This document shows positions 28,845-64,000 of a DNA stretch of 64,000 nt, piece after piece (the stretch's first letter is position 1; every line of letters begins with the position of its first letter). The notes beneath the pieces are model-generated. The model ran no database searches and had not been told where the DNA came from. It was given only the letters and a program-made list of their open reading frames with translations. This DNA comes from an uncultured Bacilli bacterium (lineage in GTDB: Bacteria; Bacillota_I; Bacilli_A; RF39; UBA660), in the NCBI GenBank assembly GCA_947624085.1, contig CANQIK010000001.1, forward strand, positions 1,781-65,780, written 5' to 3'. The translations under genes were made by a program, and so were the position numbers.

Positions 28845-28872
28845 TTATTAAATACTTCACGTCAATTGACAC

Positions 28873-28913
28873 ACAAGATTAGGAATAATCTTGTTTTTTT
28901 TTTTTTTTTTTTT
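28873..28913 (+). terminator. Hairpin plus 20-nt T tract (terminator-like)
   Basis: ACAAGATT (28873-28880) pairs with AATCTTGT (28887-28894), followed by an uninterrupted T run at 28894-28913. Confidence 0.5.
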
Positions 28914-28967
28914 GAGACAATGATAAAAATAAAGGGTATAAAAAGTGTCAATTTACATGGAGGAAAG

Positions 28968-30224
28968 ATGAAAAAGAAAGTAGGAATAATAAGTGCATTA
29001 TTGGTAATAGTTTTAGTAGTAATTTTGGCAATATTATTAACAAATAAAAAGGAAAAGAAATCATTATATAATGCAACAAATGATAATGATATAGCATATT
29101 ATTATCAAAATGGTAGTAGTTATACACAAGGGACATCAAGCACTTGGACAACAGGTTATGTATTAAATGTAGGTAAAAGTAGTTGTAATGGAACTACTAA
29201 CCCCAAGGATATATTAGACTGGGACTCAGTAAATAAAACGGTATTAATGTCAGCAAATGAAAATAATAATTGTAAATTATATTTTGATAAAGCATATACA
29301 GCAACAGAGTTTTTTACAACGTTTGCTAAAAATGTAAGTAATGGTGAATTAATACAACATACACCATCTTTATCAAATAGTGCTGGAGATAATGGTTATA
29401 GATATTCAGGAAATAATCCAAATAATTTTATATGCTTTGGACCAGGAAGCAGTGATTATAATAATGGAATAGATGGTGCAAAGTGTGACGATGGTAACTT
29501 ATATCGGATAATAGGGTATGTGCCAGTAACTTTAGCAAATGGTACAAATACAAATTTAATCAAAGTAATCAAATCAGAATATGCTACATCAAATGATTTA
29601 GGAATATCATCAAATGGTACACCATCAACTAGCTCACCATATACAGGATTAAAAAGGGTAAAAAAATTACCCGAAAATGGTTTTTGTTGGGACAATAATA
29701 AAAACAATATATGGGGCAGTAGTACATTATATCAAGCATTAAATACAAATAGTAATAGCTTTTTAAACAAACTAGGAAACTGGGCAAATAAAATAGAAGA
29801 AGTTCAATGGAATGTTGCTGGACATAATAGTCATAGTATAACGGCAAAAGCAATGTATGATATAGAAAATGATAAAAATAAAGGAGCGTCAACACAAGTC
29901 CCAGCAAAAATAGGCTTAATGTATCCCTCAGATTATGGCTTTGCAAGTAGTAAAGATAATTGGACATTGAATTTAGAAAATTATGGTAATGCTAATAATC
30001 GAGAAAACAATTGGCTATTTAATGCCGTTTATGAATGGACTGTTTCGCGCTATTCGAACTACACTGACTATGCGTTCTATGTCTACGACTATGGGTTTGT
30101 GGGCCACAACAACGTTGACGACGCGTCTGGTGTGCGCCCGGTCTTTTATCTAAACTCTAGTGTAACCTTAAGTGGTGACAATAGTATAAATGGTAGTGAT
30201 AATCATCCATATAGAGTAAATTAA
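28968..30224 (+). CDS. N-terminally anchored surface protein, unknown function
   Basis: ATG 28968 follows GGAGGAAAG. Signal anchor MKKKVGIISALLVIVLVVILAILL, an Asn/Ser/Thr/Gly-rich ectodomain, and a C-terminal GVRPVFYLNSSV motif seen in uncharacterised Bacillota surface domains. Confidence 0.7.
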   Translation: MKKKVGIISALLVIVLVVILAILLTNKKEKKSLYNATNDNDIAYYYQNGSSYTQGTSSTWTTGYVLNVGKSSCNGTTNPKDILDWDSVNKTVLMSANENNNCKLYFDKAYTATEFFTTFAKNVSNGELIQHTPSLSNSAGDNGYRYSGNNPNNFICFGPGSSDYNNGIDGAKCDDGNLYRIIGYVPVTLANGTNTNLIKVIKSEYATSNDLGISSNGTPSTSSPYTGLKRVKKLPENGFCWDNNKNNIWGSSTLYQALNTNSNSFLNKLGNWANKIEEVQWNVAGHNSHSITAKAMYDIENDKNKGASTQVPAKIGLMYPSDYGFASSKDNWTLNLENYGNANNRENNWLFNAVYEWTVSRYSNYTDYAFYVYDYGFVGHNNVDDASGVRPVFYLNSSVTLSGDNSINGSDNHPYRVN

Positions 30225-32999: not shown

Positions 33000-34071
33000 A
33001 TTTAGCCTCATATGTAAAGCCATTACGATTAATATTAAGCTTTACTTCAATATCGACATCATGATTAAAGAAATAATCACGATCTTTTTTCTTGGTTTTC
33101 TTATAGTACTTATTAGCTATACCTAAAGGATCGGTATGGGTAGCTTTTAAATCACTTATTAAAGATGAATATTTATCATGCGCAATTTTAATAAAATCAT
33201 CATTTAATTTAGGATATATATCTTCATTTTTTAAATTAAAATTAGGTTCATTAAGTTTTATTTCAGCATTAAGATTTATTACTAATTTAACTTTATTATC
33301 TTCATATTCATAGTTTACTTTAGTTTTATATATATTTATGGCAAAATTTTTATCATCATATTCTTTCGTAAGTAAATAATTACTTTCTTTATTTATTAAG
33401 GAAGCTAGAAGATAGGAATTTTCTTTATCTAAACTAGTTATATATTTACCATCTTTAAAAAGACTAATGCCATCGACTGTTAAAGTTTTATCATCTTTTT
33501 TCTTGATTGTGGTTATCGTTGTATCAATGCCATAGGTTGAGTATGTTTCAAGATTATCAGTAAATGTATTAGTAAAGATAATATTTTGACTCTTATAAGA
33601 ATATTCAATTAAATCAGTAAGGGTATTTGCAACACTTTCTCCAGACTCTGGTTTAATTTTTAGAATATCTTTTGCTTCAGTATCTTTGGCTAAAAGAAGA
33701 TAAAAATTGTTACTTATCTGGGGATTTCTTGTTATGTAATCTAGTAAATCTTTAGTACCATTATAGCCAGCATTTTCACTTATAACAACAACTCGTAAAT
33801 GAAAATAATTAGGCATTGTATTAATGCTCAAGGGTGCATTAGCAAAAGCCTCGGCAATGGTCTTTCCTGAAGCGGTAACCGTATATGGTTTAATTTTTCC
33901 TGATTCGGTATCATAGTTTTGCCCTGCTAAAATTTCAAAAGTTAATTCATATTTCTCATCATAATCAATTCCTATTGCGGTTATAAAGGCAAGTTTATCA
34001 ACTTCTTTATAATCCGAACAGCCACATATAAAAAAGGGTAGTAATAATATTAAGAAAATTATTTTTTTCAT
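32992..34071 (-). CDS. Spore germination lipoprotein, Ger(x)C family
   Basis: Lipobox LLLPFFICGC, about 360 aa. ATGA overlap with the upstream GerAA-like gene. Confidence 0.8.
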   Translation of the reverse strand: MKKIIFLILLLPFFICGCSDYKEVDKLAFITAIGIDYDEKYELTFEILAGQNYDTESGKIKPYTVTASGKTIAEAFANAPLSINTMPNYFHLRVVVISENAGYNGTKDLLDYITRNPQISNNFYLLLAKDTEAKDILKIKPESGESVANTLTDLIEYSYKSQNIIFTNTFTDNLETYSTYGIDTTITTIKKKDDKTLTVDGISLFKDGKYITSLDKENSYLLASLINKESNYLLTKEYDDKNFAINIYKTKVNYEYEDNKVKLVINLNAEIKLNEPNFNLKNEDIYPKLNDDFIKIAHDKYSSLISDLKATHTDPLGIANKYYKKTKKKDRDYFFNHDVDIEVKLNINRNGFTYEAKYE

Positions 34072-35462
34072 TTGCGCTCCTTTACGGTATTGCTTGATAG
34101 TTTTTTACTACGATATTTATTATATTTAGCTAGAATAAATTCGGAAAAATAAGGTTTATCAAAAGGAGCTAAAGGGAAAGTATAGGGATATCCTATTGAT
34201 TTAGTATCACATAGATTAATAAAGAAAAAGATAACGCCTAAGACAAGACCATATAGTCCTAAAAAGCTTGCTAGAAAGATTAAAAAGAACCGATAATAGC
34301 GCATCATATTACTTATTTCGGGGTCAGAAAATATTAAAGAAGATACATAGGTAAAAGAGCAAATGATAATCATAATTGGCGATACTAATCCCGCACTAAC
34401 GGCTGCGTCTCCTAAAACAAGAGCGCCTAAAAGGGAGGCTGCCGAACCATATTTTGACGGGAAACGTAAATCACTTTCTCTTAAAATTTCACAAATAATA
34501 AGCATAACAATACACTCAACTAAAGCTGGGAAGGGTATTTTACTGCGCTGTGAGGCAAAGTTGATAATAAGACTGGTTGGAATGGCTTCTTGATTATAGT
34601 TAATAACCGCAATATAAAAGGCCGGAACGACAATTGAGCATATGAAGCAAATCATTCTAATCAATTTAGTAAAATTAATATTGTAATTATTATTATATTT
34701 ATCGGTAAAAGGATTAATAAAGTCAATTAGAAAGGCCGGAACAATTAATGCTGTCGGAGAATTATCACAAATAATAACAATCTTACCTTCGGCTAAAGCT
34801 TCGGCACAGCGGTCTGGTCTTTCGGTGCTTATTACTGTAGGAAATAAATCTTTACTAGCACTTAAATATTTAATTAAACTTTCCGAAGAATTTAAAATAT
34901 CAATATCTATTTTACTGAGAATATCGTAAACTTTAGTAACATTTTCCGCTTTAGCAACATTATCAAGATATAAAATACCTACATTATTACTTGATAGTCT
35001 ACCAAGGGAAATATTCTTCGTTTTAAAATGTTTAGTTTTAAGTCTTCTTTTAATAAGGCCTAGGTTAGTTTGATAGTTTTCGACAAAGGCATTCTTTGGC
35101 CCATTTATCGCCGGTTCATTTTCATTAGTTGAAAGTCCCCGGTTAATATCAGCTTTTGTTTCAATTGCATAAATATTTTTATTAGCAATGATAACGCTAT
35201 AGCCATCATAGAGATATTTTTCAGCCTCGGGTAAATCTTGTAATTTTTTTATTTTACTGCCGGGAATAGCCGATTCAAAATCTATAAGACTTTTAACACT
35301 CGTTAATTTCTTTAAAATATATTCATTTATCTTATCTTGACTGCATAAAGACTCAAGATAAAAAATATAAACCTTATGAAGAGGATTTACATTAATATGC
35401 TTGATGACTAAATCAGGATCATTTTGAAATTCCTTTTGAATATATTCTAATGCTTTTTTCAT
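34068..35462 (-). CDS. Spore germination protein, GerAA-type subunit
   Basis: 464 aa, with a soluble N-terminal domain followed by a C-terminal cluster of 4-5 TM segments. It is first in the operon with the C and B subunits. Confidence 0.85.
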   Translation of the reverse strand: MKKALEYIQKEFQNDPDLVIKHINVNPLHKVYIFYLESLCSQDKINEYILKKLTSVKSLIDFESAIPGSKIKKLQDLPEAEKYLYDGYSVIIANKNIYAIETKADINRGLSTNENEPAINGPKNAFVENYQTNLGLIKRRLKTKHFKTKNISLGRLSSNNVGILYLDNVAKAENVTKVYDILSKIDIDILNSSESLIKYLSASKDLFPTVISTERPDRCAEALAEGKIVIICDNSPTALIVPAFLIDFINPFTDKYNNNYNINFTKLIRMICFICSIVVPAFYIAVINYNQEAIPTSLIINFASQRSKIPFPALVECIVMLIICEILRESDLRFPSKYGSAASLLGALVLGDAAVSAGLVSPIMIIICSFTYVSSLIFSDPEISNMMRYYRFFLIFLASFLGLYGLVLGVIFFFINLCDTKSIGYPYTFPLAPFDKPYFSEFILAKYNKYRSKKLSSNTVKERK

Positions 35463-36788: not shown

Positions 36789-37910
36789 TTATTTAGGATA
36801 TACACTAGTAATACCGAGATATTCTTCTAAAGTAAGCCAATTACCATTATTATAAAGTTTTTCGGCCAGGTCTTTACCAACATATCTTATATGCCAAGGC
36901 TCATACATATATCCTGTAATATCTTCTTTGCCTTTAGGGTAACGAATAATAAACCCATATTTATAACAATTAGCACTTAACCATTTACCCTCGGGAGTAT
37001 TTTCCCAATTTTGGTCTAAACTATTAACGTCAATAGCTAATCCTGATTGATGTTCTGAATACCCTGGTCTTGCCGAATAAGTATCAGCCATTAATTGCCC
37101 ATCTCTAGCAACATAATCATTATAAATAATCTTTTGGTCAATATAAGAACGATATGAATTTAAAGTATAAATATTAAAATCTTCTTTTAAAGCGCCTTGC
37201 CGTAATAAATCATAGGCTTTATTGGCTTCTTGATTAAACCCTGGCGCATAGTCACTAGGTAAAGGATAGGTCTTGTTAGCAATTAAAATACCATCGACAT
37301 AAGTAACACCATTTATAACTTCAATAGTATATCCTTTAGGGGATTTACCAAGAACATAGTTATCATTTGATGATGGTAGATTCCCTGAGGCAAAAGGAAT
37401 AGTTGTCGTTATATTTGCAACAACCTCTAAAGTAAATTCTTCTTTTGTAGTATTACCACTTTCATCAGTTGCTTCATAATAAAGATTATATTTGCCTGTT
37501 TTACTAAGGTCATAATCACCTTTAACGACAGGCGTAATATCTTTTTGAGAATTATCAATTACTTTAATATCTTTTAATAAATCTATTTTCTCATTAACGC
37601 CTATTTGTAAATCTTTAACTCCTATTATAGTAGGAGCTTCTAAATCATCGATAATAAGTTTAATTTTATATACTTTGTTATGAACTTTAAAACTACCTTC
37701 ATAAGAACCTTTTTTACTTGAATCAATATTATCCCATGTAATAGAAGATTCTTTATTATCATTGTAAGTAATTTTACTAGGTAGTTTATCATTTAAGTTA
37801 ATTACTAAAGTATCTTGATAAGTTATTTTGTTATTAAAGATAAAATAATAAACTACAATAATAGCTATTACTAAAATAATTATTAAAAAGATTAAAAAAG
37901 ACTTCTTCAT
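36789..37910 (-). CDS. VanY/M15B D-Ala-D-Ala carboxypeptidase family protein with an Ig-like (DUF5011-type) domain
   Basis: TM anchor, EAPTIIGVKDLQIGVNEKIDLL...YNLYYEATDESGN, then SEHQSGLAIDV and EPWHIRYVG. ATG 37910 follows GAGG. Confidence 0.8.
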   Translation of the reverse strand: MKKSFLIFLIIILVIAIIVVYYFIFNNKITYQDTLVINLNDKLPSKITYNDNKESSITWDNIDSSKKGSYEGSFKVHNKVYKIKLIIDDLEAPTIIGVKDLQIGVNEKIDLLKDIKVIDNSQKDITPVVKGDYDLSKTGKYNLYYEATDESGNTTKEEFTLEVVANITTTIPFASGNLPSSNDNYVLGKSPKGYTIEVINGVTYVDGILIANKTYPLPSDYAPGFNQEANKAYDLLRQGALKEDFNIYTLNSYRSYIDQKIIYNDYVARDGQLMADTYSARPGYSEHQSGLAIDVNSLDQNWENTPEGKWLSANCYKYGFIIRYPKGKEDITGYMYEPWHIRYVGKDLAEKLYNNGNWLTLEEYLGITSVYPK

Positions 37911-38025
37911 ATACAACCTCAATTGTTAATTTAATTATAGTATAATTTTTGTCACTTATATAAACTAATCTTTTTTCTTATGTAAAGTTTTGTTATAATT
38001 AATTTGTTATGAAAAGGGAGGACAT

Positions 38026-47510: not shown

Positions 47511-48845
47511 ATGGCTAGATTGAAACGCAAAATTGATGAATTTTTACTAAAATGGCAAACTTCGGAAGATAAAATGCCCCTTATTGTCAAAGGCGCAAGA
47601 CAAATAGGCAAAACGGACGCTATTGAAAACTTTGCTAAAAATAATTATAAATATGTAGTGGAAATAAATTTTGCTTTACAAAAAGAATATAAAACGATAT
47701 TTGATGATGGTTTTGAGGTTGATACTATTATCAATAATATTTCTATCATAAATAATAATTTTAAATTTGTCCCTCGTGAAACTTTGATATTTTTTGATGA
47801 AATGCAAGATTGTATAAACTGTGCTACTTCATTAAAATCTTTTAATCTTGACAAAAGATATGATGTAATTTGTTCTGGTTCTATGATGGGTATTAATTAT
47901 AAAGAAATTGAGTCTAATAGTGTCGGTAATAAAATAGATTATACAATGCATTCCATGGATTTTGAAGAATTTTTATGGGCTAAAGGTTATAGTGAAGACC
48001 AGATAGAGGACTTATACTTATGTATGAAAAATCTTAAGCCCCTTACAACAACGCAATTTAATGTTATGATGCATAACTTTAGAGATTACATGATTTTAGG
48101 AGGTATGCCGGCCATTGTTGATAAATTTATTAAAAGTAAAAATTTCAGTGGTATATTACCTATGCAAGAACAAATTTTAAAAGATTATGAAGAAGATATT
48201 GCTAAATATGCCCAAGGCTTTGATAAAGCTAGAATTTTAAATGCTTATCGCAAAGTATCAACATTTTTAGGTAATGAAAATAAAAAATTTCAAATATCTA
48301 AAATAGCGGAGGGAGCTAGAAATAGGGAATATGTAAGGGCTTTAAACTGTTTATCGGACGCTGGAATCATAAATGTTTGTTATTGTATGGAAGATTGTGC
48401 TCTTCCCCTTAAAGGAAATTATAATCCGGATAATTATCGCTTATATTTTGCCGACACAGGTATTCTTATAGCTTCTCTTGATGATGAAGCCCAAGAAGAT
48501 TTACGTAAAAATCAAAATTTTAATACCTATAAAGGTGCTATCTATGAAAATATTGTTGCCGATATGTTAGTAAAAGAGGGTTATCAACTTTATTTTTATA
48601 AAAATGAAAAGGGTACAATTGAAATGGATTTCTTTATAAGAGATAGTAATTCTTTAATACCTGTTGAAGTAAAAGCTAATGATAATGCTACCGTATCATT
48701 AAATAAATTAATAGATAGTGAACAATTTAAAGATATAAAATATGGAATTAAATTGGGTAATAAAAATATTGGTTTTAATGGAAAATTTTATACATTCCCT
48801 TATTTTATGGCTATTTTTTTAAAAAGATTTCTTAATGACAAATAA
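47511..48845 (+). CDS. AAA+ ATPase with a DUF4143 C-terminal domain (COG1373 type)
   Basis: Walker A GARQIGKT and Walker B LIFFDEMQ. Length and layout are typical of AAA_14 + DUF4143 proteins. Confidence 0.85.
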   Translation: MARLKRKIDEFLLKWQTSEDKMPLIVKGARQIGKTDAIENFAKNNYKYVVEINFALQKEYKTIFDDGFEVDTIINNISIINNNFKFVPRETLIFFDEMQDCINCATSLKSFNLDKRYDVICSGSMMGINYKEIESNSVGNKIDYTMHSMDFEEFLWAKGYSEDQIEDLYLCMKNLKPLTTTQFNVMMHNFRDYMILGGMPAIVDKFIKSKNFSGILPMQEQILKDYEEDIAKYAQGFDKARILNAYRKVSTFLGNENKKFQISKIAEGARNREYVRALNCLSDAGIINVCYCMEDCALPLKGNYNPDNYRLYFADTGILIASLDDEAQEDLRKNQNFNTYKGAIYENIVADMLVKEGYQLYFYKNEKGTIEMDFFIRDSNSLIPVEVKANDNATVSLNKLIDSEQFKDIKYGIKLGNKNIGFNGKFYTFPYFMAIFLKRFLNDK

Positions 48846-53760: not shown

Positions 53761-54392
53761 TGTTAAACAAAAGGCTAACAGCCATTGCGTCGTTAGTTAC
53801 TAAAGATAGCATTGTTCTAGATGTTGGAACTGATCATGCTTTATTACCTATTTATTTAATTAAAAATAAGATATGTCAAAAAGTATTAGCTAGTGACATT
53901 TCCCCTAAAGCATTAGAAAATGCTAAAGCTAATATTAAAAAATATAACATTACCAATATAACGTTATATGAAACGGACGGTCTTAAAGATATACCTAAAA
54001 AATATGATACTCTTATTATAAGTGGCATGGGAACTTCTACAATATTAAGTATTTTAGCTACTGATGATTTGCCAAATACCATAATTTTAAGCTCCAATAA
54101 TGACTTAGAATTATTAAGAGTAACCATGAATAAAAAGGGCTATAAAATTACGAAAGAACTAGTGGTTTACGAAAAAAATAAATATTATGATATTATTTTA
54201 TACGAAAAGGGTAAAGAAAGATTAACTAAATTTGTTAAAGAATTTGGTAAAAGTAATGATTTAGATTACTATAATCATCTTTATAAATTAGAAAAAAAGA
54301 TTTATGAAGTAGCTAACAAAGCCAAAAAAGGAAAATTAAAACATTCCCTAAAAAGACTTGGCAAAGCTATTGAAAAAAGGAAGGATTATTAG
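53760..54392 (+). CDS. trmK: tRNA (adenine22-N1)-methyltransferase TrmK
   Basis: RLTAIASLVTKDSIVLDVGTDHALLPIYL. It lies immediately after sigA, as yqfN/trmK does in Bacillus. Confidence 0.85.
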   Translation: MLNKRLTAIASLVTKDSIVLDVGTDHALLPIYLIKNKICQKVLASDISPKALENAKANIKKYNITNITLYETDGLKDIPKKYDTLIISGMGTSTILSILATDDLPNTIILSSNNDLELLRVTMNKKGYKITKELVVYEKNKYYDIILYEKGKERLTKFVKEFGKSNDLDYYNHLYKLEKKIYEVANKAKKGKLKHSLKRLGKAIEKRKDY

Positions 54393-54633
54393 AATTGTTC
54401 ATAATGGGCCTTTTTTTATTGATATTTTCGCTGTTATTTGGCGTATTCATAACACCCTTGTTAAGGGAAGCATTAGTCATTTCTTTTAAGGCTCCAAATG
54501 CTTTCCGGGCATTTTGCACCATGGGACTTAATTGTTGATAAATGGGTATTACTTGATTAGCTACATTTAATGATTTAGAAATTCCCCCGAGAAGTCTTGA
54601 AAAATTAAAGCCACTTGGTATATTTGGGAACAT
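54367..54633 (-). CDS. Small protein, possibly YqfQ-like
   Basis: ANQVIPIYQQLSPMVQNARKAF resembles the conserved QQYGPMVKN core of YqfQ-like proteins. It sits 54 nt downstream of giant paralog 1 on the same strand. Confidence 0.35.
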   Translation of the reverse strand: MFPNIPSGFNFSRLLGGISKSLNVANQVIPIYQQLSPMVQNARKAFGALKEMTNASLNKGVMNTPNNSENINKKRPIMNNSNNPSFFQ

Positions 54634-54687: not shown

Positions 54688-57600
54688 TTAATTTCTCGTT
54701 TTCTTTTTTAACCTTCTACTGTTAGAACCCTCTAATAATTTTATTTGTAAATCTAATTCTTTGTATAGAGCTTTCATTGGTTCTTCAGTTAAATCATAAT
54801 CCCCAAGAAGTTCAATGTCTTTTTGAATATCTATAATATGTTCATAACCTTCATATTCAAAAATGATTTCTTGCAGGTTAGTAGCATATATTGTTTTTCC
54901 TTCATGTTCTTGTTTAGAGAAAAAATAAGTAAGAATTTGGTTATAAATGTTATAATTTTCCGGATTATAATCTTTAAATTTTAAACTTGTAATAGCAGAA
55001 AAATTAAAGGCAGTTGGATCAATTTCCTTTATACTTGATGGTAAAGAAAGCTTTTCAAATGACTGATCAGCAAAAACTTTACCTTTTATTTGCGTAATAG
55101 TTCCATCACCTAAAAATTCAATACTTGCTATAGGGGTGTCTTTGAATAATGGCTCATCTCCTTCAATAACTTGGACATTAGGAAACATAACTTTCATATC
55201 TTTATTAATTTGCCGTAATTTATCAAGCATTATTTTTTCGCCTTTTAATGTTTCAGGATTATGATAAAAACTTGTATTAATTTTGGCTATGCACGCAGGA
55301 AAACGAGGAAGTCCTACAAATGAATTTCTAAAAGGAGGATAGATATGTTTTAAATAAAGATCACAGAAGTCATAAAATGACTTTCTAAATTTAAAGTAGC
55401 TATAAGGATGATCATGAGATGACTTTACGTTTGTAAAATTCAAATTTGAGTAATAGTATATTTCCATAATATCAAGTAAACTAACTTCGTTAGAAAATTT
55501 GAAAATTTTAGTATCTTTGAATAATTTATCATTTTCAATATTTACTGGTAGTTTTTTAAATATACTAGCAAAACCTCTAAATTCAAACATTGCTGAAAAT
55601 ATATTAAGTAAATAATAATCGGTTAATATTTTATAGGGATCTATTTCTTCTTCACCATTTTTTAAAATATCAATAAATACTTCCCTAAGTTTAGGCGTAT
55701 CTTCCCCAAAAATACTAACAGTAAAATAGGTTGTAAATAGTTCATGATCAATACCTTGTAAAGTTTCTAATATAAATCTTTGATAACAGGCAATTTCTTC
55801 ATGGGGACTTTGAACACTTATAAATGGCTCGATTACTTTCCCGCCCAATGTCAATATTTTAAATTTAAGAACATAAAAATTATATAAAGTATCATTATTA
55901 ATATATTTATTATTTCCATATCTAGCAAAAGCTAATAATTTAGTTTCGATTGCTTTCAAATCATCTAATGAAACATAATAAGATTGTTCATACATCGCCT
56001 GAAACTTTTCTAAAACTTGTTTTTCTTTTTCTTCATTATTTTGTAGATATTCTCTTAAATTTTCTTCAATTTCTATACAACTATGTAACATACAATCAAG
56101 ATCATTTTCGCTGTACACAGAAAAAGTGACGCGTTTTGCTAAAGGAAATAAGTCATTAAATGCATTATACGTTTGAAGCTTTTCATAAATTAAACTTTTA
56201 AAATAATCAACACAATGCTCATATATATAAAAAGAATATTTAAAAGTCCGTAATATAAACTTTGGATAATAACCTAATTGAACAAACATAGTATGTAACA
56301 TAGCTGAGTTAATTATGACATCTTCATCTAATTCATTTATATGAATAGTAATACTTTTACAGTTGTTTGATTCTAAGTATTCCTCCCAAGTCGGACACTT
56401 TTCACCGTAGTTGAAAATTTCAGATAATTTATAATTTAATATGGAGTTAACATCATCTTTTTTTTCATTGTCTATAATTGGAATACCATTGGTACTCATA
56501 TTGAAAATAATATTTTCAATACTAGAATTTACTTTAGCTATGTAAATAACTTGTTGAATGGTAGAAGGGAAGGTAATAGTTTTATAATGAAATAGATATT
56601 CTGCGTCGTCGATTTTTTGCAAGCCTTCATTAAATACAAACCCCTTAACTGAAGCGGTTTCAAAAATGTCTAAAGATATGTTTTTTAAAGTACTAGGGAA
56701 ATATACTATTTTATTTTTAGCATCTTCACGTATTTTTTTACAAAGTTTTAATAAAAAACCATCTTCATAAGGATGAAGATATAAATTTTCAATACCCTCG
56801 GGCAAATAATATTTGTCATCTTCTTTAATATTATTTTCACTACAAATTAGATATAATTTACCGAAATTGTATGCTTCACTTTTTAACTTATTTTCATCGG
56901 CAACACTATCTAAATAACAAGCAGTTTCAAACGGAATAATACTTTCGATTTGTATATAATGAGCTTCATGTATATATGTATCAATTGGTGCCCAGGAACA
57001 AGAAACTTTACATTTAAACAGCTTCTTTAAACCATCTTCTGTGTTGAAAGAAAGCAAGAAGCTTAATAAAACATCATCATATAATATATTTGTTAATTTA
57101 TTTTGGTAAATTTCTTTTACTAAATTAATAGCATAACCAATATTATTTTTAAATTGATTATTAAATATTTCGTTTTGACCTAAAATTATTCTTTGATATA
57201 TATCAATAACGATGCTTTCATAATATTCAAGTTCTATTTTATCTTCCATCTTTTTAAATATAACCGTATCTACTAAAATAGTATCGCATACCAAAGCATT
57301 AAATTTTAAACTATAAAGAGTTGCTAAATCGGTTTCATCAATAGGTATATCCTTATATTCATTAGTCGAAGCGTAATCATAAAACACGCGATATTTAATT
57401 TCTAGTTCATCTATTTTATGGAGTATTTCATCTTTATGTTTTTCATCAAAGGGAATTGCAAGTATTGCTTCTATTTCAGCTTGCTTAGTTTCCATTGTAA
57501 TCTCGTCTTTATGCATATAAACATATTTTTCAAGCAAGATAGTAGCTTTAGCTAAATCGGAATATATAGATTTACTGTTAATATCTAATTTGACTCTTTC

Positions 57601-58224
57601 TTCGGTTGGCAAAATATTTTGTAACCATGTTAAATAATCTATTTTTCTTATCCTTAAAATAACGACGTCTTTATATAAATTATTGTTTAGATAACTACGA
57701 ATGCTATTAATTATACTAATTTGATTAGTAATTAAAATGTTAAGAGAGATATATAATCTATTTAAGACATTATTGATTGCTTCTTTTTTTAATCTTGAAA
57801 GTATAAACTTTTCTTTTTTTACTTCATTAAGAGCAATAAGGCGCGCAATTACTTCATTTTGATAAGTTATAATGTCATTTAAATATAGTTTTAATTTAGC
57901 ACAATTTATTAGATAATTAATTTTACGTTTATAAATAGAAAGATTTTTATCTCTATCAGTAAGATAGGTATTTTCTAAAAGTTCTATTATCATTGTAATA
58001 TTATAGTTAAGTTCATCTGCTTCCAAAATGAGAGCATTACTATGTTTGATATTAGAAAGTGCAGTTTGATATTCAGCTTTATAAAAATCAACTAAAGCAT
58101 CATTTTGAAATTCTTGCCGGGTAGGTAGTTTAATATTACTTTCGGGGCATGACAAATCAGTAGCATATGACTTGCTATTTTTAAAGGCATTTTTAAGTTT
58201 AGCAAAAAGCTCTGAAAAAGGCAT
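54688..58224 (-). CDS. Giant hypothetical protein, tandem paralog 1 (1178 aa): helical head plus two repeated modules with BspA/LRR_5-like strands
   Basis: Uninterrupted 3.5-kb ORF. SD GGGGGG lies 8 nt upstream. There is no signal peptide (MPFSELFAKLKNAFKNSK). LRR_5-like VYFPSTLKNISLDIF..GFVFNEGLQKI..KTITFPSTIQ and KVFADQSFEKLSLPSSIKEIDPTAFNFSAITSLKF. Confidence 0.85.
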   Translation of the reverse strand: MPFSELFAKLKNAFKNSKSYATDLSCPESNIKLPTRQEFQNDALVDFYKAEYQTALSNIKHSNALILEADELNYNITMIIELLENTYLTDRDKNLSIYKRKINYLINCAKLKLYLNDIITYQNEVIARLIALNEVKKEKFILSRLKKEAINNVLNRLYISLNILITNQISIINSIRSYLNNNLYKDVVILRIRKIDYLTWLQNILPTEERVKLDINSKSIYSDLAKATILLEKYVYMHKDEITMETKQAEIEAILAIPFDEKHKDEILHKIDELEIKYRVFYDYASTNEYKDIPIDETDLATLYSLKFNALVCDTILVDTVIFKKMEDKIELEYYESIVIDIYQRIILGQNEIFNNQFKNNIGYAINLVKEIYQNKLTNILYDDVLLSFLLSFNTEDGLKKLFKCKVSCSWAPIDTYIHEAHYIQIESIIPFETACYLDSVADENKLKSEAYNFGKLYLICSENNIKEDDKYYLPEGIENLYLHPYEDGFLLKLCKKIREDAKNKIVYFPSTLKNISLDIFETASVKGFVFNEGLQKIDDAEYLFHYKTITFPSTIQQVIYIAKVNSSIENIIFNMSTNGIPIIDNEKKDDVNSILNYKLSEIFNYGEKCPTWEEYLESNNCKSITIHINELDEDVIINSAMLHTMFVQLGYYPKFILRTFKYSFYIYEHCVDYFKSLIYEKLQTYNAFNDLFPLAKRVTFSVYSENDLDCMLHSCIEIEENLREYLQNNEEKEKQVLEKFQAMYEQSYYVSLDDLKAIETKLLAFARYGNNKYINNDTLYNFYVLKFKILTLGGKVIEPFISVQSPHEEIACYQRFILETLQGIDHELFTTYFTVSIFGEDTPKLREVFIDILKNGEEEIDPYKILTDYYLLNIFSAMFEFRGFASIFKKLPVNIENDKLFKDTKIFKFSNEVSLLDIMEIYYYSNLNFTNVKSSHDHPYSYFKFRKSFYDFCDLYLKHIYPPFRNSFVGLPRFPACIAKINTSFYHNPETLKGEKIMLDKLRQINKDMKVMFPNVQVIEGDEPLFKDTPIASIEFLGDGTITQIKGKVFADQSFEKLSLPSSIKEIDPTAFNFSAITSLKFKDYNPENYNIYNQILTYFFSKQEHEGKTIYATNLQEIIFEYEGYEHIIDIQKDIELLGDYDLTEEPMKALYKELDLQIKLLEGSNSRRLKKKTRN

Positions 58225-58233
58225 GACTTTTTC

Positions 58234-58282
58234 CCCCCTTATATGGTGAGTATTATATCATGATTTGACATAAATAAATACA
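58234..58282 (-). promoter_or_regulatory. Conserved upstream block of paralog 1: SD plus extended -10 promoter
   Basis: The minus strand reads TGTATTTATTTATGTCAAATCATGATATAATACTCACCATATAAGGGGG. TGaTATAAT corresponds to + 58252-58260. An identical 49-nt block lies at 61906-61954. Confidence 0.55.
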
Positions 58283-58308
58283 AAAATATTTTTATTTTAT
58301 AGCCTTAT

Positions 58309-61300
58309 TTAATCCTCTTTCTTTTTCTTGATTCTGGCAAGTTGATAATGTAATGCTTTTGCTCTTTTCTCATCTTCTTTTTTTGAAACTCTATAAATAT
58401 AAGATGGTAATAATTTTTTATCTAAATGTAATTTTTCAATCATTGCCTTAATTGGTTCTTCAGTAAGATCATAATCTTGAAGAAGTTCTATATCTTTTTC
58501 AATATCTAGTACGTATTGATATTCAGTAATTTCTAATAACCGAAAATCATTAAAATCAAAAATAATTTTTTGTAAGTTAGTAGCATAAACTGTTTTTCCA
58601 TCACGTTCTTGTTGATAAAAGAAATTGCCAAAATAACTAGTATGGCTATGTAAATCGTCCGAGTAAAAATTTGTTAATCTCAGCACTTTAACAGATAAGA
58701 AATTAATTGCTTTTTTATCGATTACATAAACACTTTGCGGTAAAGAAAGTACTTCAAATGATTGATCAGCAAAAACTTTACCCATTATATGCGTAAAATG
58801 TCCACCACCAATACCTGCTACAGGAACACCTCCGAATAGTGGTACGCTACCTTCAATAACTTGGACATTAGGAAATACTACATATTTACCTCTATTAATT
58901 TCGCGCAATTTATCAAGCATTGCTATTTCTTTTTTAGGTGTCGTAGGATCATTATAAAAGTCAGTATGAATTTGGATAATAAAATCGGGAAAATGGCCAA
59001 AATTTTCATTTTCAATTTTAAAAGGAAGATAATACTTTAAATATAAATCATAAAAATCATAAAGTGACTTGCTAATTTTAAAATAACTATCAGAATAAAT
59101 AAAAGGTTCTTTTATATCTGTATAATCCATTTTTGAATAGTAGTATATTTCCATTGCCTCATGTAAATTAATTTCTGAACGAAACGTGTACATTTTTGAC
59201 TTCTTGTATAAATCTCTGCTAAAATACATATCACCAACTCGTAATTGAAACATCCGATGAAATGGGTTATCTTTACTAGAAAACATTGATAGAAATATAT
59301 TAAGTAAATAATAGTCAGTCAATATTTTATATGGGTCTATTTCTTCTTCACCATTTTTTAAAATATCTGTAAGTGTTTCCCTAAGTTTAGCGGTATCTTC
59401 CCCAAAAGTACCATCAGTAAAAATATTAGTTTCAAAAAGCTTATGATAAGTTCCTTGTAAACTATCCAATATAAATCTTTCATAGCACGCAATTTCTTCT
59501 TGGGAACTTTGGACACTTATAAATGGTTTAATCAATTCTTCACCACTTGTTAAAGCCCTAAATTTAAGAACATAGAAGTTATATACAGTGTCATTATCAA
59601 TGTACTTATTATTTCCATATCTAGCAAAAGCTAGTAAATTTGGTTCTATAAGATTTAAATCATCTAAAATATCTTCAAATTTATAAGTATCAAGAATTTC
59701 GTGTAATCTAACAATTTGCTTAAATTTCTCTAAGATTTGTTTTTCTTCCTCCTCACTATTTTGAACATATTCTTTTAAATTTGCACGAACTGTTTCACAA
59801 TCATTTATCATAGAAAGGGGATTATCACTAATGCTGATTTGCTTTTCTTGGGGAAGTAATTTATTAAATTCTTTATATATTTGAAGCTTTTTATAAATTA
59901 AATCTTTAAAGTAGTCGTTTGTATGCGTCTTATGCCATATAGCGAAATTGTAAAAAACTTCATAAATCATGAATGGATTAATTATGATATCTTCATCTAA
60001 TTCGTTTATATGGATAATAATATTTTTACAATAGTTTGACTCTAGATAATACTCCCAAGTAGGACCTTTTTCAAAAAACTTTAATAAAGGTGGAATTATT
60101 TGTGCATTAACTGGATTTTTATCATCTAAAATAGGGGCATTATTTTTGCTTATATTAACAATAACATTTTCAATAGGAGATATTTCACTTGCTGTTTTAG
60201 TAATTGCTTTTATTGTTGAAGGAAAATTGATTGTTTTACACTTGAATAGGCAATCTGCATTTTCAAGTGTTTCTAAGCCCTCATTTAATACAAAGCCTTT
60301 GACTGGCACGTTTGCAAAAATTTCTAAAGATATTTTTTTAAGAGAACTAGGGAAATATACTGTTCTATTTGTTGCGCTTTCTTGGATGCTTGTATATACG
60401 TTTAAAATAGAATTATTTTGGGCTTGTAATTGAAAAATTATACTTTCAATACCCTCGGGCATATAATATTTGTCATCATCTTCAAAATTATTTCTTCGAT
60501 AAAGGAAATATAATTTATATATATTTACTCTATCTTCATAAAAGGGTTCCCTTATATCGTTTTCATCTTGAAGACTTTCAAAATAGTACAATGTTGATAA
60601 TGGGACGTAATCCTTTGTTCTAATAGCATGACTATCATACATATAATATGGCAAAAAATAATCACTTGCGTTTTGGTCAAGAAGTTTATTTAAACCATCT
60701 TCGGAGTTTAGAGCAAGTAGTAAACTTAGCAATAAATCATTATTTAGTACAGTAATTAGTCTATTCTTATAAATTTCTTTTATTATATCAATCGCTAAAG
60801 TAAAATTATCTTTAAATAATTTATTAAATATTTCATTTTGACCTAAGATTATTCTTTGATACATATCAATAACGATGCTTTCATAATATTCTCGTTCTAT
60901 TTCATCTTTTATATTTTTTAAGATAATTATAGTATCAACAATAACAGCATTGCCTACTAATGCATTAAATTTTAAACTGTAAAGTGTTGCTAAATCAGTT
61001 TCATCAATAGGGATATCCTTATATTCGTTAATCGAAGTGTAATCGTAAAAAACGCGATATTTAATTTCTATTTCATCTATTTTATGGAGTATTTCATCTT
61101 TATGTTCTTCATCAAAGGGAATTGCAAGTATTGCTTCTATTTCAGTTTGCTTACTTTCTATTGTAATCTCGTCTTTATGCATATAAGCGTATTTTTCAAG
61201 TAAGATAGTAGCTTTAGCTATATCGGAATATATGGATTTACTATTAATATCTAATTTGACTCTTTCTTCGGTTGGCAAAATATTTTGTAACCATGTTAAA

Positions 61301-61899
61301 TAATCTATTTTTTTAATGACAGCTTGTTCTAAAATGCCGACGCTTTCATATAAATTATTGTTTAGATAACTACGAATACTATTAATTATACTAATTTGAT
61401 TAGTAATTAAAATGTTAAGAGAGATATATAATCTATTTAAGACATTATTGATTGCTTCTTTTTTTAATCTTGAAAGTATAAACTTTTCTTTTTTTACTTC
61501 ATTAAGAGCAATAAGGCGCGCAATTACTTCATTTTGATAAGTTATAATGTCATTTAAATATAGTTTTAATTTAGCACAATTTATTAGATAATTAATTTTC
61601 CGTTTATAAATAGAAAGATTTTTATCTCTATCAGTAAGATAGATATTTTCTAAAAGTTCTATTATCATTGTAATATTATAGTTAAGTTCATCTGCTTCCA
61701 AAACTAAGGCATTACTATGTTTGATATTAGAAAGTGCAGTTTGATATTCAGTTTTATAAAAATCAATTAAAGCATCATTTTGAAAATCTTGCCGAGTAGG
61801 GAGTTTAATATTACTTTCAGGGCATGATAAAGCGCTAGCATATAATTTGCTATTTTTAAACACATTTTTAAGTTTAGCAAAAAGCTCTGAAAAAAGCAT
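58309..61899 (-). CDS. Giant hypothetical protein, tandem paralog 2 (1196 aa)
   Basis: The first 330 aa or so are nearly identical to paralog 1. The centre resembles paralog 3. Its C-terminus is distinct (…RVSKKEDEKRAKALHYQLARIKKKKED). Confidence 0.85.
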   Translation of the reverse strand: MLFSELFAKLKNVFKNSKLYASALSCPESNIKLPTRQDFQNDALIDFYKTEYQTALSNIKHSNALVLEADELNYNITMIIELLENIYLTDRDKNLSIYKRKINYLINCAKLKLYLNDIITYQNEVIARLIALNEVKKEKFILSRLKKEAINNVLNRLYISLNILITNQISIINSIRSYLNNNLYESVGILEQAVIKKIDYLTWLQNILPTEERVKLDINSKSIYSDIAKATILLEKYAYMHKDEITIESKQTEIEAILAIPFDEEHKDEILHKIDEIEIKYRVFYDYTSINEYKDIPIDETDLATLYSLKFNALVGNAVIVDTIIILKNIKDEIEREYYESIVIDMYQRIILGQNEIFNKLFKDNFTLAIDIIKEIYKNRLITVLNNDLLLSLLLALNSEDGLNKLLDQNASDYFLPYYMYDSHAIRTKDYVPLSTLYYFESLQDENDIREPFYEDRVNIYKLYFLYRRNNFEDDDKYYMPEGIESIIFQLQAQNNSILNVYTSIQESATNRTVYFPSSLKKISLEIFANVPVKGFVLNEGLETLENADCLFKCKTINFPSTIKAITKTASEISPIENVIVNISKNNAPILDDKNPVNAQIIPPLLKFFEKGPTWEYYLESNYCKNIIIHINELDEDIIINPFMIYEVFYNFAIWHKTHTNDYFKDLIYKKLQIYKEFNKLLPQEKQISISDNPLSMINDCETVRANLKEYVQNSEEEEKQILEKFKQIVRLHEILDTYKFEDILDDLNLIEPNLLAFARYGNNKYIDNDTVYNFYVLKFRALTSGEELIKPFISVQSSQEEIACYERFILDSLQGTYHKLFETNIFTDGTFGEDTAKLRETLTDILKNGEEEIDPYKILTDYYLLNIFLSMFSSKDNPFHRMFQLRVGDMYFSRDLYKKSKMYTFRSEINLHEAMEIYYYSKMDYTDIKEPFIYSDSYFKISKSLYDFYDLYLKYYLPFKIENENFGHFPDFIIQIHTDFYNDPTTPKKEIAMLDKLREINRGKYVVFPNVQVIEGSVPLFGGVPVAGIGGGHFTHIMGKVFADQSFEVLSLPQSVYVIDKKAINFLSVKVLRLTNFYSDDLHSHTSYFGNFFYQQERDGKTVYATNLQKIIFDFNDFRLLEITEYQYVLDIEKDIELLQDYDLTEEPIKAMIEKLHLDKKLLPSYIYRVSKKEDEKRAKALHYQLARIKKKKED

Positions 61900-61905
61900 A
61901 ACTCT

Positions 61906-61954
61906 CCCCCTTATATGGTGAGTATTATATCATGATTTGACATAAATAAATACA
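61906..61954 (-). promoter_or_regulatory. Conserved upstream block of paralog 2: SD plus extended -10 promoter
   Basis: Same 49-nt block as 58234-58282. TGaTATAAT corresponds to + 61924-61932. Confidence 0.55.
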
Positions 61955-61971
61955 TCTTTTTATCGTTTGGT

Positions 61972-64000
61972 TTACTCGTTTTGCTTTTTTAAACTTCTAC
62001 TAGCAGAAGGCTCTAATTTTTCAGAGCCTAAATCTAATTTTGGAGTTATTGCTTTCATTGGTTCTTCAGTTAAATCATACCCCTGAAGAAGTTCAATATC
62101 TTTTTGAATATCTATAATATGCTCATAACCCTCAAATTCAAAAACAATTTCTTGTAGGGTAGTAGTATATATTGTTTTTCCTTTACTTTCTTGTTTAGAG
62201 AAAAAATAAGTAAGAATTTTGTTATAAATGTTGTAATTTTCTGGATTATAATCTTTAAATTTTAATCTTTTAATAGCAGAAAAATTAAAGGCCGTTGGGT
62301 CAATTTTTCTAATACTTGATGGCAAGGAAAGTTCTTCAAAAGATTGATTGGCAAAAACTTGGCCTTTTATCATACTCGTATTATCCTTAAATATAATATG
62401 TATTTTACGAATGCTTTCAAATAAGGGTACATCTCCTTCAATAACTTCGGCATAAGAACAAAAAACGTATGCATCTTTAACAATTTTACGAAATTTATCA
62501 AGCATTGCTTTTTCTTTTTTTAAGGTCTTAGGATTATTATAAAAACTTGTATTAATTTTGGCAATGCATTCAGAAAAATCATTAAGGTATGCATATGGTT
62601 GTTGAAAAAAAGTTCGTATCTTTAAATAAAGATTGCAGAAGTTATAAAATGAGCTTCTAACTTTAAAGTAGCTACGATGATGAGGATAAGATGGTTCCAT
62701 ATCCGGGAAGTCCATATTTGAATAGTAGTATATTACCATAATATCATGTAAAGAAAGTTGATCAGCAAAACTGAAAATTTTTGTATCTAGGAATAATTGA
62801 CTATTTTCAATATTTACTTTTAGTTTAAACATCCTTTGAAAAGGAATATAGTTTTTAGAAAACATTGATAGAAATATATTCAGTAAATAATAATCTGTTA
62901 ATATTTTATAGGGATCTATTTCTTCTTCACCATTTTTTAAAATGTCAATAAAGGCTTCTTTTAGTTTAGAATTATCTTCGCCAAAAGTTCCCAAAGTATC
63001 ATGCATAATATCGGTAAAAATATTTTTTTTAAATAATTCATGATTAACACCTTGTAAAGTTTCTGATATAAATTTTTTATAACTAGCAATTTCTTCATTG
63101 GAGCTTTGCACACTTATAAATGGATCAATCAGCTCATCGCCGTGTGTTATAACTTTAAATTTAAGAACATAAAAGTTATATATGGTATCACTATTAATAT
63201 ACTTATTATTTCCATATCTAGCAAAAGCTAATAATTTAATTTCAATTGCTTTCAAAATATCTAATGGTACATCATAAGGTATGCTATACATTTTTTGAAA
63301 CTTTTCTAAAATTTGTTTTTCTTCTTCTTCATTATTTTGCAGATATTCTCTTAAGTTTGCCTGAATTATTTCACAATCATTTATCATAGAAAGAGAATCA
63401 TCGCTAATACTAATTTGTCTTTCGCGGGGAAGTAATTCATTAAATGCTTTATATATTTGAAGTTTTTCATAAATCAAACTCTTAAAATAATCAGTATAAT
63501 TGGGCTCGTTCTTAGAAATTAAAAATGGCTGAACAAAATAAGTATTATATGAAAGAAAAGCCTGATAAATCATGAATGAATCAATTATAATATCTTCATC
63601 TAATTCATTTATATGGATAAAAATATTTTTACAATGGTCTGAGTTTAGATATTCTTTCCATGTCAAATATGTTGTAGAAAAGTTTAATTTATGTTTAAGT
63701 ATCTCTTTATTAATTGCGCTTTCATAATCTAAAATGGGAGCATTATCTTTACTGATATTGGCAATAATATTTTCAATATAATTATATGCATAAGAAGTTA
63801 TATTAATTGCTTTTATCGTTGACGGGAAATTAATTGTTTTACAGCTTAATAGCCAAGCAGCACTTTGAAGAGTTTCTAAGCCTTCATTCAATACAAACCC
63901 TTTAACGGTAGTATTTGCCAAAAAATTCCCTAATAATTTTTTTAGAGTACTAGGAAAATATACTGTTCTATTTGTTGCGCTTTCTAGCATATTTACATGA
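61972..64000 (-). CDS. Giant hypothetical protein, tandem paralog 3; 5' partial (runs off the window)
   Basis: The frame stays open upstream of the track's first Met (…HVN-MLESATNRTVYFPSTLKK). This aligns with paralog 2 residues …SIQESATNRTVYFPSSLKK at about position 520, so roughly 500 N-terminal codons lie beyond 64000. Confidence 0.85.
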   Translation of the reverse strand, partial: HVNMLESATNRTVYFPSTLKKLLGNFLANTTVKGFVLNEGLETLQSAAWLLSCKTINFPSTIKAINITSYAYNYIENIIANISKDNAPILDYESAINKEILKHKLNFSTTYLTWKEYLNSDHCKNIFIHINELDEDIIIDSFMIYQAFLSYNTYFVQPFLISKNEPNYTDYFKSLIYEKLQIYKAFNELLPRERQISISDDSLSMINDCEIIQANLREYLQNNEEEEKQILEKFQKMYSIPYDVPLDILKAIEIKLLAFARYGNNKYINSDTIYNFYVLKFKVITHGDELIDPFISVQSSNEEIASYKKFISETLQGVNHELFKKNIFTDIMHDTLGTFGEDNSKLKEAFIDILKNGEEEIDPYKILTDYYLLNIFLSMFSKNYIPFQRMFKLKVNIENSQLFLDTKIFSFADQLSLHDIMVIYYYSNMDFPDMEPSYPHHRSYFKVRSSFYNFCNLYLKIRTFFQQPYAYLNDFSECIAKINTSFYNNPKTLKKEKAMLDKFRKIVKDAYVFCSYAEVIEGDVPLFESIRKIHIIFKDNTSMIKGQVFANQSFEELSLPSSIRKIDPTAFNFSAIKRLKFKDYNPENYNIYNKILTYFFSKQESKGKTIYTTTLQEIVFEFEGYEHIIDIQKDIELLQGYDLTEEPMKAITPKLDLGSEKLEPSASRSLKKQNE

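Follow-up and report, generated by a model that had tools for sequence, protein, structure and literature searches.

We describe a tandem array of three giant paralogous genes at positions 54688-64000 of a 64,000-nucleotide (nt) stretch of DNA, hereafter the window, from an uncultured Bacilli bacterium (GenBank assembly GCA_947624085.1, contig CANQIK010000001.1). The genes very likely belong to a recombining family of non-enzymatic binding proteins in which a conserved N-terminal region is followed by duplicated modules that end in BspA-type leucine-rich repeats (LRRs). Taken as a whole, the sequence data are best explained, if tentatively, by a recombining, Sec-independent repertoire of LRR binding proteins that would probably lie close to the membrane inside the cell. 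What emerges is a well-delimited family, not a new mechanism.

Few protein families of gut and mucosal microbes are as expanded, or as poorly understood, as the LRR_5 (BspA-like) proteins, which are usually taken to be surface adhesins. If the proteins described here act inside the cell, the known roles of BspA-type LRRs in bacteria would widen; if they are exported, their conserved N-terminus would imply an unrecognised export route in Gram-positive spore-formers.

The open reading frame (ORF) list and translations place the three paralogues head to tail on the minus strand, with coordinates exactly as the initial annotation had given them. Copy 1 (54688..58224) is a complete coding sequence of 1178 amino acids (aa; 138.6 kDa, pI 5.2) and is identical to database protein P0001, which is encoded on an 85.9-kb NCBI contig. 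Copy 2 (58309..61899) is also complete (1196 aa), and an identical protein is encoded on L001, a 7.2-kb ENA contig from an independent assembly on which all three genes recur at 99.3% identity. Only the 3' part of copy 3 (61972..64000) is present, as a frame that runs from 61972 to 63990 and is open at the window end; it encodes at least 675 aa in the window (profile positions 518-1177). L001 lengthens it by 489 nt (163 codons) to at least 838 aa (profile positions 352-1177), with the start still not reached, and a full-length copy 3 was not returned by homology search.

Protein architecture and homology

The initial annotation divided each protein into a head and a body, with bodies containing only short LRR-like repeats. 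Profile alignment supports a different division, in which the body is two copies of one ~450-aa module and the former 'head' is the N-terminal region together with the start of the first module. In copy 1, an N-terminal region (aa 1-192; 57649..58224, minus strand; pI 9.2), delimited from AlphaFold2 models, hydrophobic moment and invariant columns, precedes module A (aa 193-644; 56293..57648, minus strand) and module B (aa 681-1141; 54802..56184, minus strand). Each module joins a helical subdomain (~193-404 in A, ~681-890 in B) to a short BspA-type LRR block (~406-640 and ~893-1135), as judged from hhalign and PDB LRR_5 matches for both, together with the model for A and LRR_5 hits for B. The homology of the two modules is strongly supported by hhalign (probability 100%, E=3.3e-48, 417 columns). 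The internal duplication is visible only with profiles and in tblastn cross-matches, and a BLASTP comparison of the two modules of copy 1 gives no signal.

Structure prediction is consistent with this arrangement. One model covers the full-length protein (pLDDT 74, pTM 0.42); the other, built from an alignment of 43 sequences, covers aa 1-660 (pLDDT 81, pTM 0.76). The N-terminal region is predicted to comprise an amphipathic cationic helix (aa 2-15, with aa 3-14 helical in the models), a disordered linker, an IKLPTRQEF motif and two long helices (97-138 and 144-180), and the LRR blocks are modelled as beta/alpha solenoids at aa 406-640 and within the second half (aa 661-1135). A C-terminal helix closes the protein. 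Charge is split along the chain, with a basic N-terminal region and C-terminal tail (pI 9.2) and acidic modules (pI about 5). L, Y, E, K, P and G account for most invariant columns, and a motif scan of the array proteins for Walker A, HExxH, PD-(D/E)xK and LPXTG found none, in agreement with the earlier observation that Walker, HExxH and nuclease motifs are missing. Each product has no recognisable enzyme domain, nor does any of 60 family members show an enzyme motif.

The two family profiles, A1 and A2, match the BspA-type LRR structures 4fdw, 4fd0, 4fs7, 4h09, PcpA (4cp6) and TpLRR (6mlx) at LRR positions only (profile positions 462-605 and 1011-1077), with E=2.7e-16 for A1 and E=8.3e-23 for A2 against 4fdw. 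LRR_5 (PF13306) is detected in 32 of 43 family members. The three window proteins taken alone yield only sub-threshold LRR_5 in Pfam and NCBIfam scans, with scores of 23.2 and 24.0 against a cut-off of 27.7 bits and none in copy 2; the match in copy 1 lies at aa 1026-1085. On these profile matches, the LRR blocks (~aa 406-640 and 893-1135) are homologous to LRR_5/TpLRR, and the family is a branch of the BspA-like LRR_5 superfamily. At the profile level its repeats are of the same type as those of Treponema TpLRR, PcpA and the other structures above, as well as of Tannerella BspA and 4gt6. Unlike these BspA/TpLRR proteins, the window proteins fall below the Pfam threshold and have few repeats per block, more than half of their length is a helical architecture with no relative in Pfam, PDB or BFVD, and the family lacks a signal peptide or anchor.

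Outside the LRR blocks, the view that no characterised family explains the protein holds up. The helical parts match no Pfam family in any of the 43 members and no PDB sequence, and Foldseek searches of PDB and BFVD with the full-length and aa 1-660 models returned nothing at E<=1e-3 (best BFVD match E=0.36). This helical architecture, confidently modelled in the shorter construct, is therefore an orphan with no PDB or BFVD counterpart. No match was found in PADLOC at E<=0.1, and PHROGs gave nothing better than E=0.01. Pfam scans of the window proteins and the 43 members showed no AAA, NACHT or NB-ARC domain. A TPPII match (E=5e-4, below cut-off) and other weak library matches were rejected as noise; Foldseek matches to NRC2/NRC3, 14-3-3, cohesin SA2, JetA and tape-measure proteins, with template modelling (TM) scores from <=0.1 to ~0.3, were set aside as generic helical similarity.

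A conserved, helical N-terminal part, a variable remainder and tandem paralogues are also shared with polymorphic toxins (LXG/type VII secretion system (T7SS), Rhs and contact-dependent inhibition (CDI) systems; PMC3482391), and the proteins could be T7SS-type substrates of this sort, in which the head would serve trafficking and stay constant while the C-terminal cargo varies. We consider this highly improbable. Pfam scans revealed no LXG/WXG-type or toxin domain at E<=1, no immunity gene is adjacent, and small immunity genes are missing from the gaps between copies, which measure only 84 and 72 nt. The family thus differs from polymorphic toxins in having neither an LXG domain nor a toxin/immunity pair. 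Its variable part is instead an internally duplicated LRR module, probably for binding, and copies 1 and 3 resemble each other most closely at their C-termini.

Segmental duplication, promoters and mosaicism

The array arose locally by duplication of a segment that holds a gene with its promoter and Shine-Dalgarno (SD) sequence. Twenty direct-repeat families, spaced 3.58-3.71 kb apart, link the copies, and the intergenic gaps contain only the promoter block. This block, of 49 nt, lies at 58234-58282 and 61906-61954 (repeat D19) and is 100% identical before copies 1 and 2, which bears out the initial claims that the same extended -10 and AAGGGGG SD precede each and that the duplicated unit is gene plus expression signals. 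The period of 3,675 bp proposed earlier is approximately right: the blocks are 3672 nt apart, and other repeat families are spaced at 3654-3708 nt.

On the minus strand, the copy 1 block (58234..58282) supplies an extended -10 TGATATAAT (58260-58252) and an SD AAGGGGGG (58240-58233) ahead of the ATG at 58224, and the copy 2 block (61906..61954) supplies TGATATAAT (61932-61924) and AAGGGGG (61912-61906) ahead of the ATG at 61899. The coding-strand order is thus TGATATAAT, 11 nt, AAGGGGG(G), 6-8 nt and ATG. Comparison across the family lends independent weight to per-copy promoters, as initially proposed. In nine genomes, each of the 14 full-length family genes examined has TGnTA[TC]AAT in the 70 nt that precede its ATG (chance expectation 0.012 per 70 nt). 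In 13 of these, a G-run SD follows the motif, whose end lies 24-30 nt from the ATG. The encoded proteins are mutually only 30-40% identical. Since the extended -10 and SD are conserved throughout these 14 genes, each copy very probably has its own predicted sigma-A-type extended -10 promoter, a short leader and a strong SD. A generic promoter scan of the AT-rich window was uninformative (80 found against 73 expected), and the 49-nt block was absent from the JGI metagenomes in which it was looked for. No terminator-like site was found between the copies, so that read-through between them is possible. A sporulation-type promoter was rejected on inspection, as the conserved element fits the sigma-A extended -10 consensus better than those of sigma-E or sigma-K.

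Some paralogues elsewhere carry a further element in this region. A perfect 16-nt palindrome, AAATCTCTAGAGATTT, followed by GGTAA, stands ~60-80 nt upstream of the start codon, before the promoter, in L004, L005 (first gene), L008, L009 and L022; it is degenerate in L006, and the window copies do not have it. Its role may be that of an operator or of a terminator for the preceding gene.

The earlier description of the copies as a constant head with a mosaic body captures two real features, with a qualification as to the first. Per 50-aa window, copies 1 and 2 share 84-100% aa identity to about aa 300, so the near-identity of their heads stands, and 30-72% beyond. The constancy seen here is largely recent homogenisation superimposed on family-wide conservation, the head also being the most conserved part of the protein across species. 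Between copies 1 and 2, synonymous divergence (dS) falls from 0.76 in the body to 0.18 in the head (aa 1-330), and this four-fold reduction points to recent homogenisation, indicating gene conversion between the two copies. The homogenised segment of copy 1 (57235..58224, minus strand) has its partner at 60910-61899 in copy 2, and is supported by aa identity, by dS and by the DNA repeats D5 (98%) and D6 (91%).

Beyond the head, the three copies form a mosaic in which the closest pair changes along the alignment. Across 850 informative sites, copies 2 and 3 are closest at aa 343-724, copies 1 and 3 at aa 727-1028 and 1062-1178, and copies 1 and 2 at aa 1029-1061. The heterogeneity among these blocks (chi2 213.8 against 40 +/- 9 in permuted data) is attained in none of 2000 permutations, and the mosaic is thus real and beyond chance. 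Selection on the genes is, on balance, purifying, and they are not decaying: dN/dS stands at 0.28 in the head (dN 0.05) and ~0.44 in the body, where it ranges from 0.5-0.8 at aa 640-760 and 870-1010 to ~0.2 at aa 760-870. Identical alleles are found again in two to three samples, which argues that the family is not hypervariable on short timescales. Repeats suited to phase variation were likewise not found in the array; there is no dinucleotide repeat of >=5 units, and the only homopolymers are T8 (twice) and the G6 of the copy 1 SD.

These features bear on whether the array could be non-functional or an artefact, that is, a set of decaying duplicates or a mis-assembled repeat. The assembly is of the metagenome-assembled genome (MAG) type, the family gene in one relative is broken into three ORFs, and all 51 differences between the window and L001 are confined to 57271-57968, in the copy 1 head beside the contig end, where copy 1 in L001 is closer to the copy 2 head (97.8%). 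This cluster may be a very recent gene-conversion tract, or repeat mis-threading or a mis-join at the contig end. The remaining ~6 kb is reproduced exactly by the independent ENA assembly, the three ~1,180-codon ORFs are intact at 26-27% G+C, their dN/dS is 0.28-0.44, and the promoter and SD are kept across species. A single intact orthologue also stands at the syntenic site in three other species (L003, L007 and L028/L029), in the order T2SSF and prepilin peptidase, family gene, yqfQ-like ORF, trmK, rpoD and dnaG, which identifies the window array as a local amplification. An artefactual origin is accordingly scarcely credible, and this reading, like the polymorphic-toxin one, is largely excluded.

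Cellular location and possible role

None of 60 family members carries a Sec signal, lipobox, transmembrane segment or wall anchor, as assessed by simple hydropathy tests and not by SignalP. This extends to the whole family the initial observation that a hydrophobic N-terminal signal is missing. A signal-peptide-like hydrophobic N-terminus is found in 0 of the 60, against 60 of 78 giant LRR_5 control proteins from the same search. The stop-to-stop frame opens just 11 codons 5' of the ATG, and therefore no signal peptide is hidden upstream of the annotated start. Cysteine content does not discriminate for export (0.75-0.96% in the family, 1.14% in other window ORFs, 2.1% in LRR_5 giants). All members instead begin with a cationic amphipathic helix, M-x-[IL]-x-x-[ILF]-x-K-L-F-K-K, with a net charge of +3 and a median hydrophobic moment of 0.65 (within the top ~4% of windows in the same proteins), after which comes a conserved [IV]x[IL]PxR[KE][ED]F motif.

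The host is a further consideration. The window encodes a GerA-family germination protein (34068-35462, minus strand) and a VanY carboxypeptidase (36789-37922, minus strand), and the syntenic relative L028 carries CotJB and a CotJC-like Mn-catalase (1373-2363). These genes indicate that the host lineage is a walled endospore-former, despite its ~28% G+C. Since no member has a recognisable export or anchoring signal while the host is a walled spore-former, intracellular action seems the most likely, and we favour, with less than even confidence, a repertoire of intracellular, membrane-proximal LRR receptors or scaffolds over exported adhesins. Segmental duplication of the gene with its promoter and SD has produced a tandem array within a small, lineage-restricted multigene family. 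The copies diverge in their modules and swap segments, through recombination or gene conversion, which yields the mosaic, and their heads are homogenised. In the scheme that we favour, the LRR modules would be the ligand-binding parts, so that the array offers several specificities on a common N-terminal platform, and the amphipathic helix may hold the proteins at the cytoplasmic face of the membrane. There they could serve, without enzymatic activity, as receptors or scaffolds that bind variable ligands, which may come from phages or mobile elements.

Several observations weigh against this proposal. BspA-type LRRs are typically extracellular, which makes an unrecognised export route a serious alternative, and the conserved helix at the N-terminus may direct secretion and not tether the protein to the membrane. 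The proteins have no effector or NTPase domain through which a sensor would signal. Diversifying selection is not demonstrated, dN/dS being <1 everywhere. The genomic contexts of family genes are housekeeping, and no conserved partner gene or defence-island context was found among the loci examined. A large element that carries short relatives (see below) shows no capsid or terminase on its 168-kb form, and these relatives have no match in INPHARED by tblastn or in IMG/VR (P0010); a viral origin for them was rejected on the latter grounds. More generally, the receptor, defence or antigen role suggested in the initial annotation is supported by no test here, there being no defence-island context, PADLOC match or phase-variation repeat.

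The alternative that export raises is a variable repertoire of surface or secreted BspA-like adhesins or antigens, whose variant LRR faces would touch the host mucosa or other microbes and which would leave the cell by a non-classical exit (through an unrecognised N-terminal signal, by cell lysis, or from the mother cell onto the spore surface). We regard this as somewhat less likely than an intracellular role, though almost on a par with it. The LRR type is that of surface proteins, as the signal-peptide-like N-termini of most giant LRR_5 proteins illustrate, its relatives in the PDB comprise 'cell surface proteins' and PcpA, and the presence of several mosaic, recombining gene copies with relaxed segments typically marks a surface repertoire. 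The strictly conserved 14-aa N-terminal helix could be a targeting signal, and the host forms spores; spore-coat proteins require no signal peptide. Against this stand the 60 members without a Sec or lipoprotein signal, transmembrane segment or LPXTG motif, a promoter of the sigma-A extended -10 type instead of sigma-E or sigma-K, the lack of LXG/WXG domains, of adjacent secretion genes in most contexts and of phase-variation repeats, and alleles that are identical across samples.

Comparison with established LRR_5 repertoires reveals both common ground and differences. 'Candidatus Mycoplasma girerdii' has a phase-variable BspA-like repertoire of at least 28 copies (PMC5476646), and Trichomonas vaginalis has 911 TvBspA genes, of which 193 encode a transmembrane domain, many of the proteins lacking a signal peptide or transmembrane domain (PMC2843621). 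These are likewise clustered, divergent LRR_5 paralogues of host-associated microbes. The window family, in contrast, has only one to four (or more) copies per genome and no export signal; its genes lack the dinucleotide or homopolymer switches of the girerdii type, its N-terminal region and helical subdomains are family-specific, and its module is internally duplicated. Its variation also comes from duplication and gene conversion between full-length copies.

An analogy with plant immunity suggests another possibility, namely an NTPase-less intracellular immune or conflict protein in which the LRRs would recognise phage components and the N-terminal helix and bundle would form a membrane-disrupting executioner, or, in a variant, a phage-derived counter-defence protein domesticated by the host. 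The cationic amphipathic N-terminus without an export signal, the diversification of paralogues behind a conserved N-terminal part, the presence of relatives on a phage-like 148-168-kb element and of a Fic gene between two copies in one relative are all compatible with it, and the best, non-significant Foldseek matches are the plant coiled-coil nucleotide-binding LRR receptors (CC-NLRs) NRC2 (E=7.7e-3) and NRC3 (E=0.11). The likeness to CC-NLRs is one of logic only, however, in that both have an amphipathic N-terminal helix, a helical bundle and an LRR part. The window family lacks an NB-ARC/NTPase domain or Walker A, and TM scores of 0.08-0.12 are noise and give no evidence of homology. Together with the missing PADLOC match and defence-island context, and with a seemingly constitutive strong promoter that would be risky for a pore-former, this makes an immune role improbable. 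Equally improbable, in our judgement, is the broader proposal that these are a new kind of bacterial LRR protein with an undescribed ~400-aa helical N-terminal architecture and a germline-encoded repertoire of specificities, serving either as an NTPase-less, membrane-acting receptor for phage or mobile elements or as the cargo of an unrecognised Sec-independent export route.

Distribution of the family and genomic setting

A word-indexed search returned only 11 clusters in 5.8 billion, and a second such search with A2 added no named or new head-bearing relatives. Family counts were taken from an exhaustive profile search, among its best 150 representatives. These include 13 two-module proteins and 48 that have the N-terminal region and one module (~615-965 aa); the remaining matches are giant LRR_5 proteins, similar in their repeats alone. 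In the species-representative genome collection, all 22 loci fall in nine 'uncultured Bacilli bacterium' MAGs labelled Lapin, and the two-module form has so far been found only in MAGs of this description, which represent a few spore-formers of the gut. The label would suggest a rabbit origin.

Each MAG holds one to four copies, and these are divergent; the relatives are thus not the uniformly single-copy, invariant homologues that would have spoken against a variable repertoire. Fourteen of 24 genes are cut by a contig end, 12 of them at profile positions 165-344, the pattern expected of assemblers at a shared, near-identical head. Tandem pairs occur in L010 and in L005/L031. In the latter, a Fic/DOC-family gene (331-333 aa) lies between the two copies (4209-5207 in L005, from Lapin-007__bin28; 4193-5188 in L031, from ENA), and a Fic-like_C fragment (279-539) is found upstream of the family gene in L030. 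In L018 (2-3032; Lapin-011__bin94) the family gene is split into three ORFs that cover profile positions 221-772, 781-886 and 880-1166, and is either a pseudogene or affected by sequencing errors. Paralogues away from the syntenic site adjoin PFOR, an RNA-modification/U32/Tex cluster, FtsH or an acyl-CoA ligase.

Short relatives are also carried by a large element of 27% G+C, represented by L024, L025, L033 and L034 on Ga0247608_10000098 (168 kb), Ga0310691_10000127 (148.5 kb) and the ENA contig k141_3581925 (108 kb). In the JGI metagenomes, where it measures 148-168 kb, its genes are co-oriented and mostly without Pfam match. It encodes two one-module family members and an 87-aa fragment, along with a phage-type DNA polymerase (phrog_1252), an AAA ATPase, two DUF7192 genes, a NUDIX protein and an rve transposase, as well as three other LRR_5 proteins of ~700 aa whose heads are not detectably related to the family. 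The element may be a large phage or a plasmid.

Within the 64-kb window no further family members were found, and the rest of the sequence is ordinary chromosome, with pyrG, lepA, uvrC, rnfC/D-like genes, dnaG, rpoD and trmK. An unlisted 88-aa ORF (54367-54633, minus strand) follows copy 1 after a gap of 54 nt and shares 26 nt with the 3' end of trmK. Small ORFs at the same place in L002, L003, L007, L028 and L029 are 74-88% identical to it, and it weakly matches Pfam YqfQ (E=1.3e-4, below cut-off). In B. subtilis, yqfQ lies near trmK (yqfN) and sigA, and the ORF probably reflects ancestral synteny and is not a partner of the array. For two other sizeable ORFs, at 23747-25357 (plus strand, 536 aa) and 28866-30224 (plus strand, 452 aa), Pfam gives nothing at E<=1e-5. 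An AAA_14/DUF4143 ATPase gene (47511-48845, plus strand) stands between uvrC and the rnfC-like gene; these two are directly adjacent in L029, with a gap of 32 nt, and the ATPase gene is therefore an insertion in the window genome.

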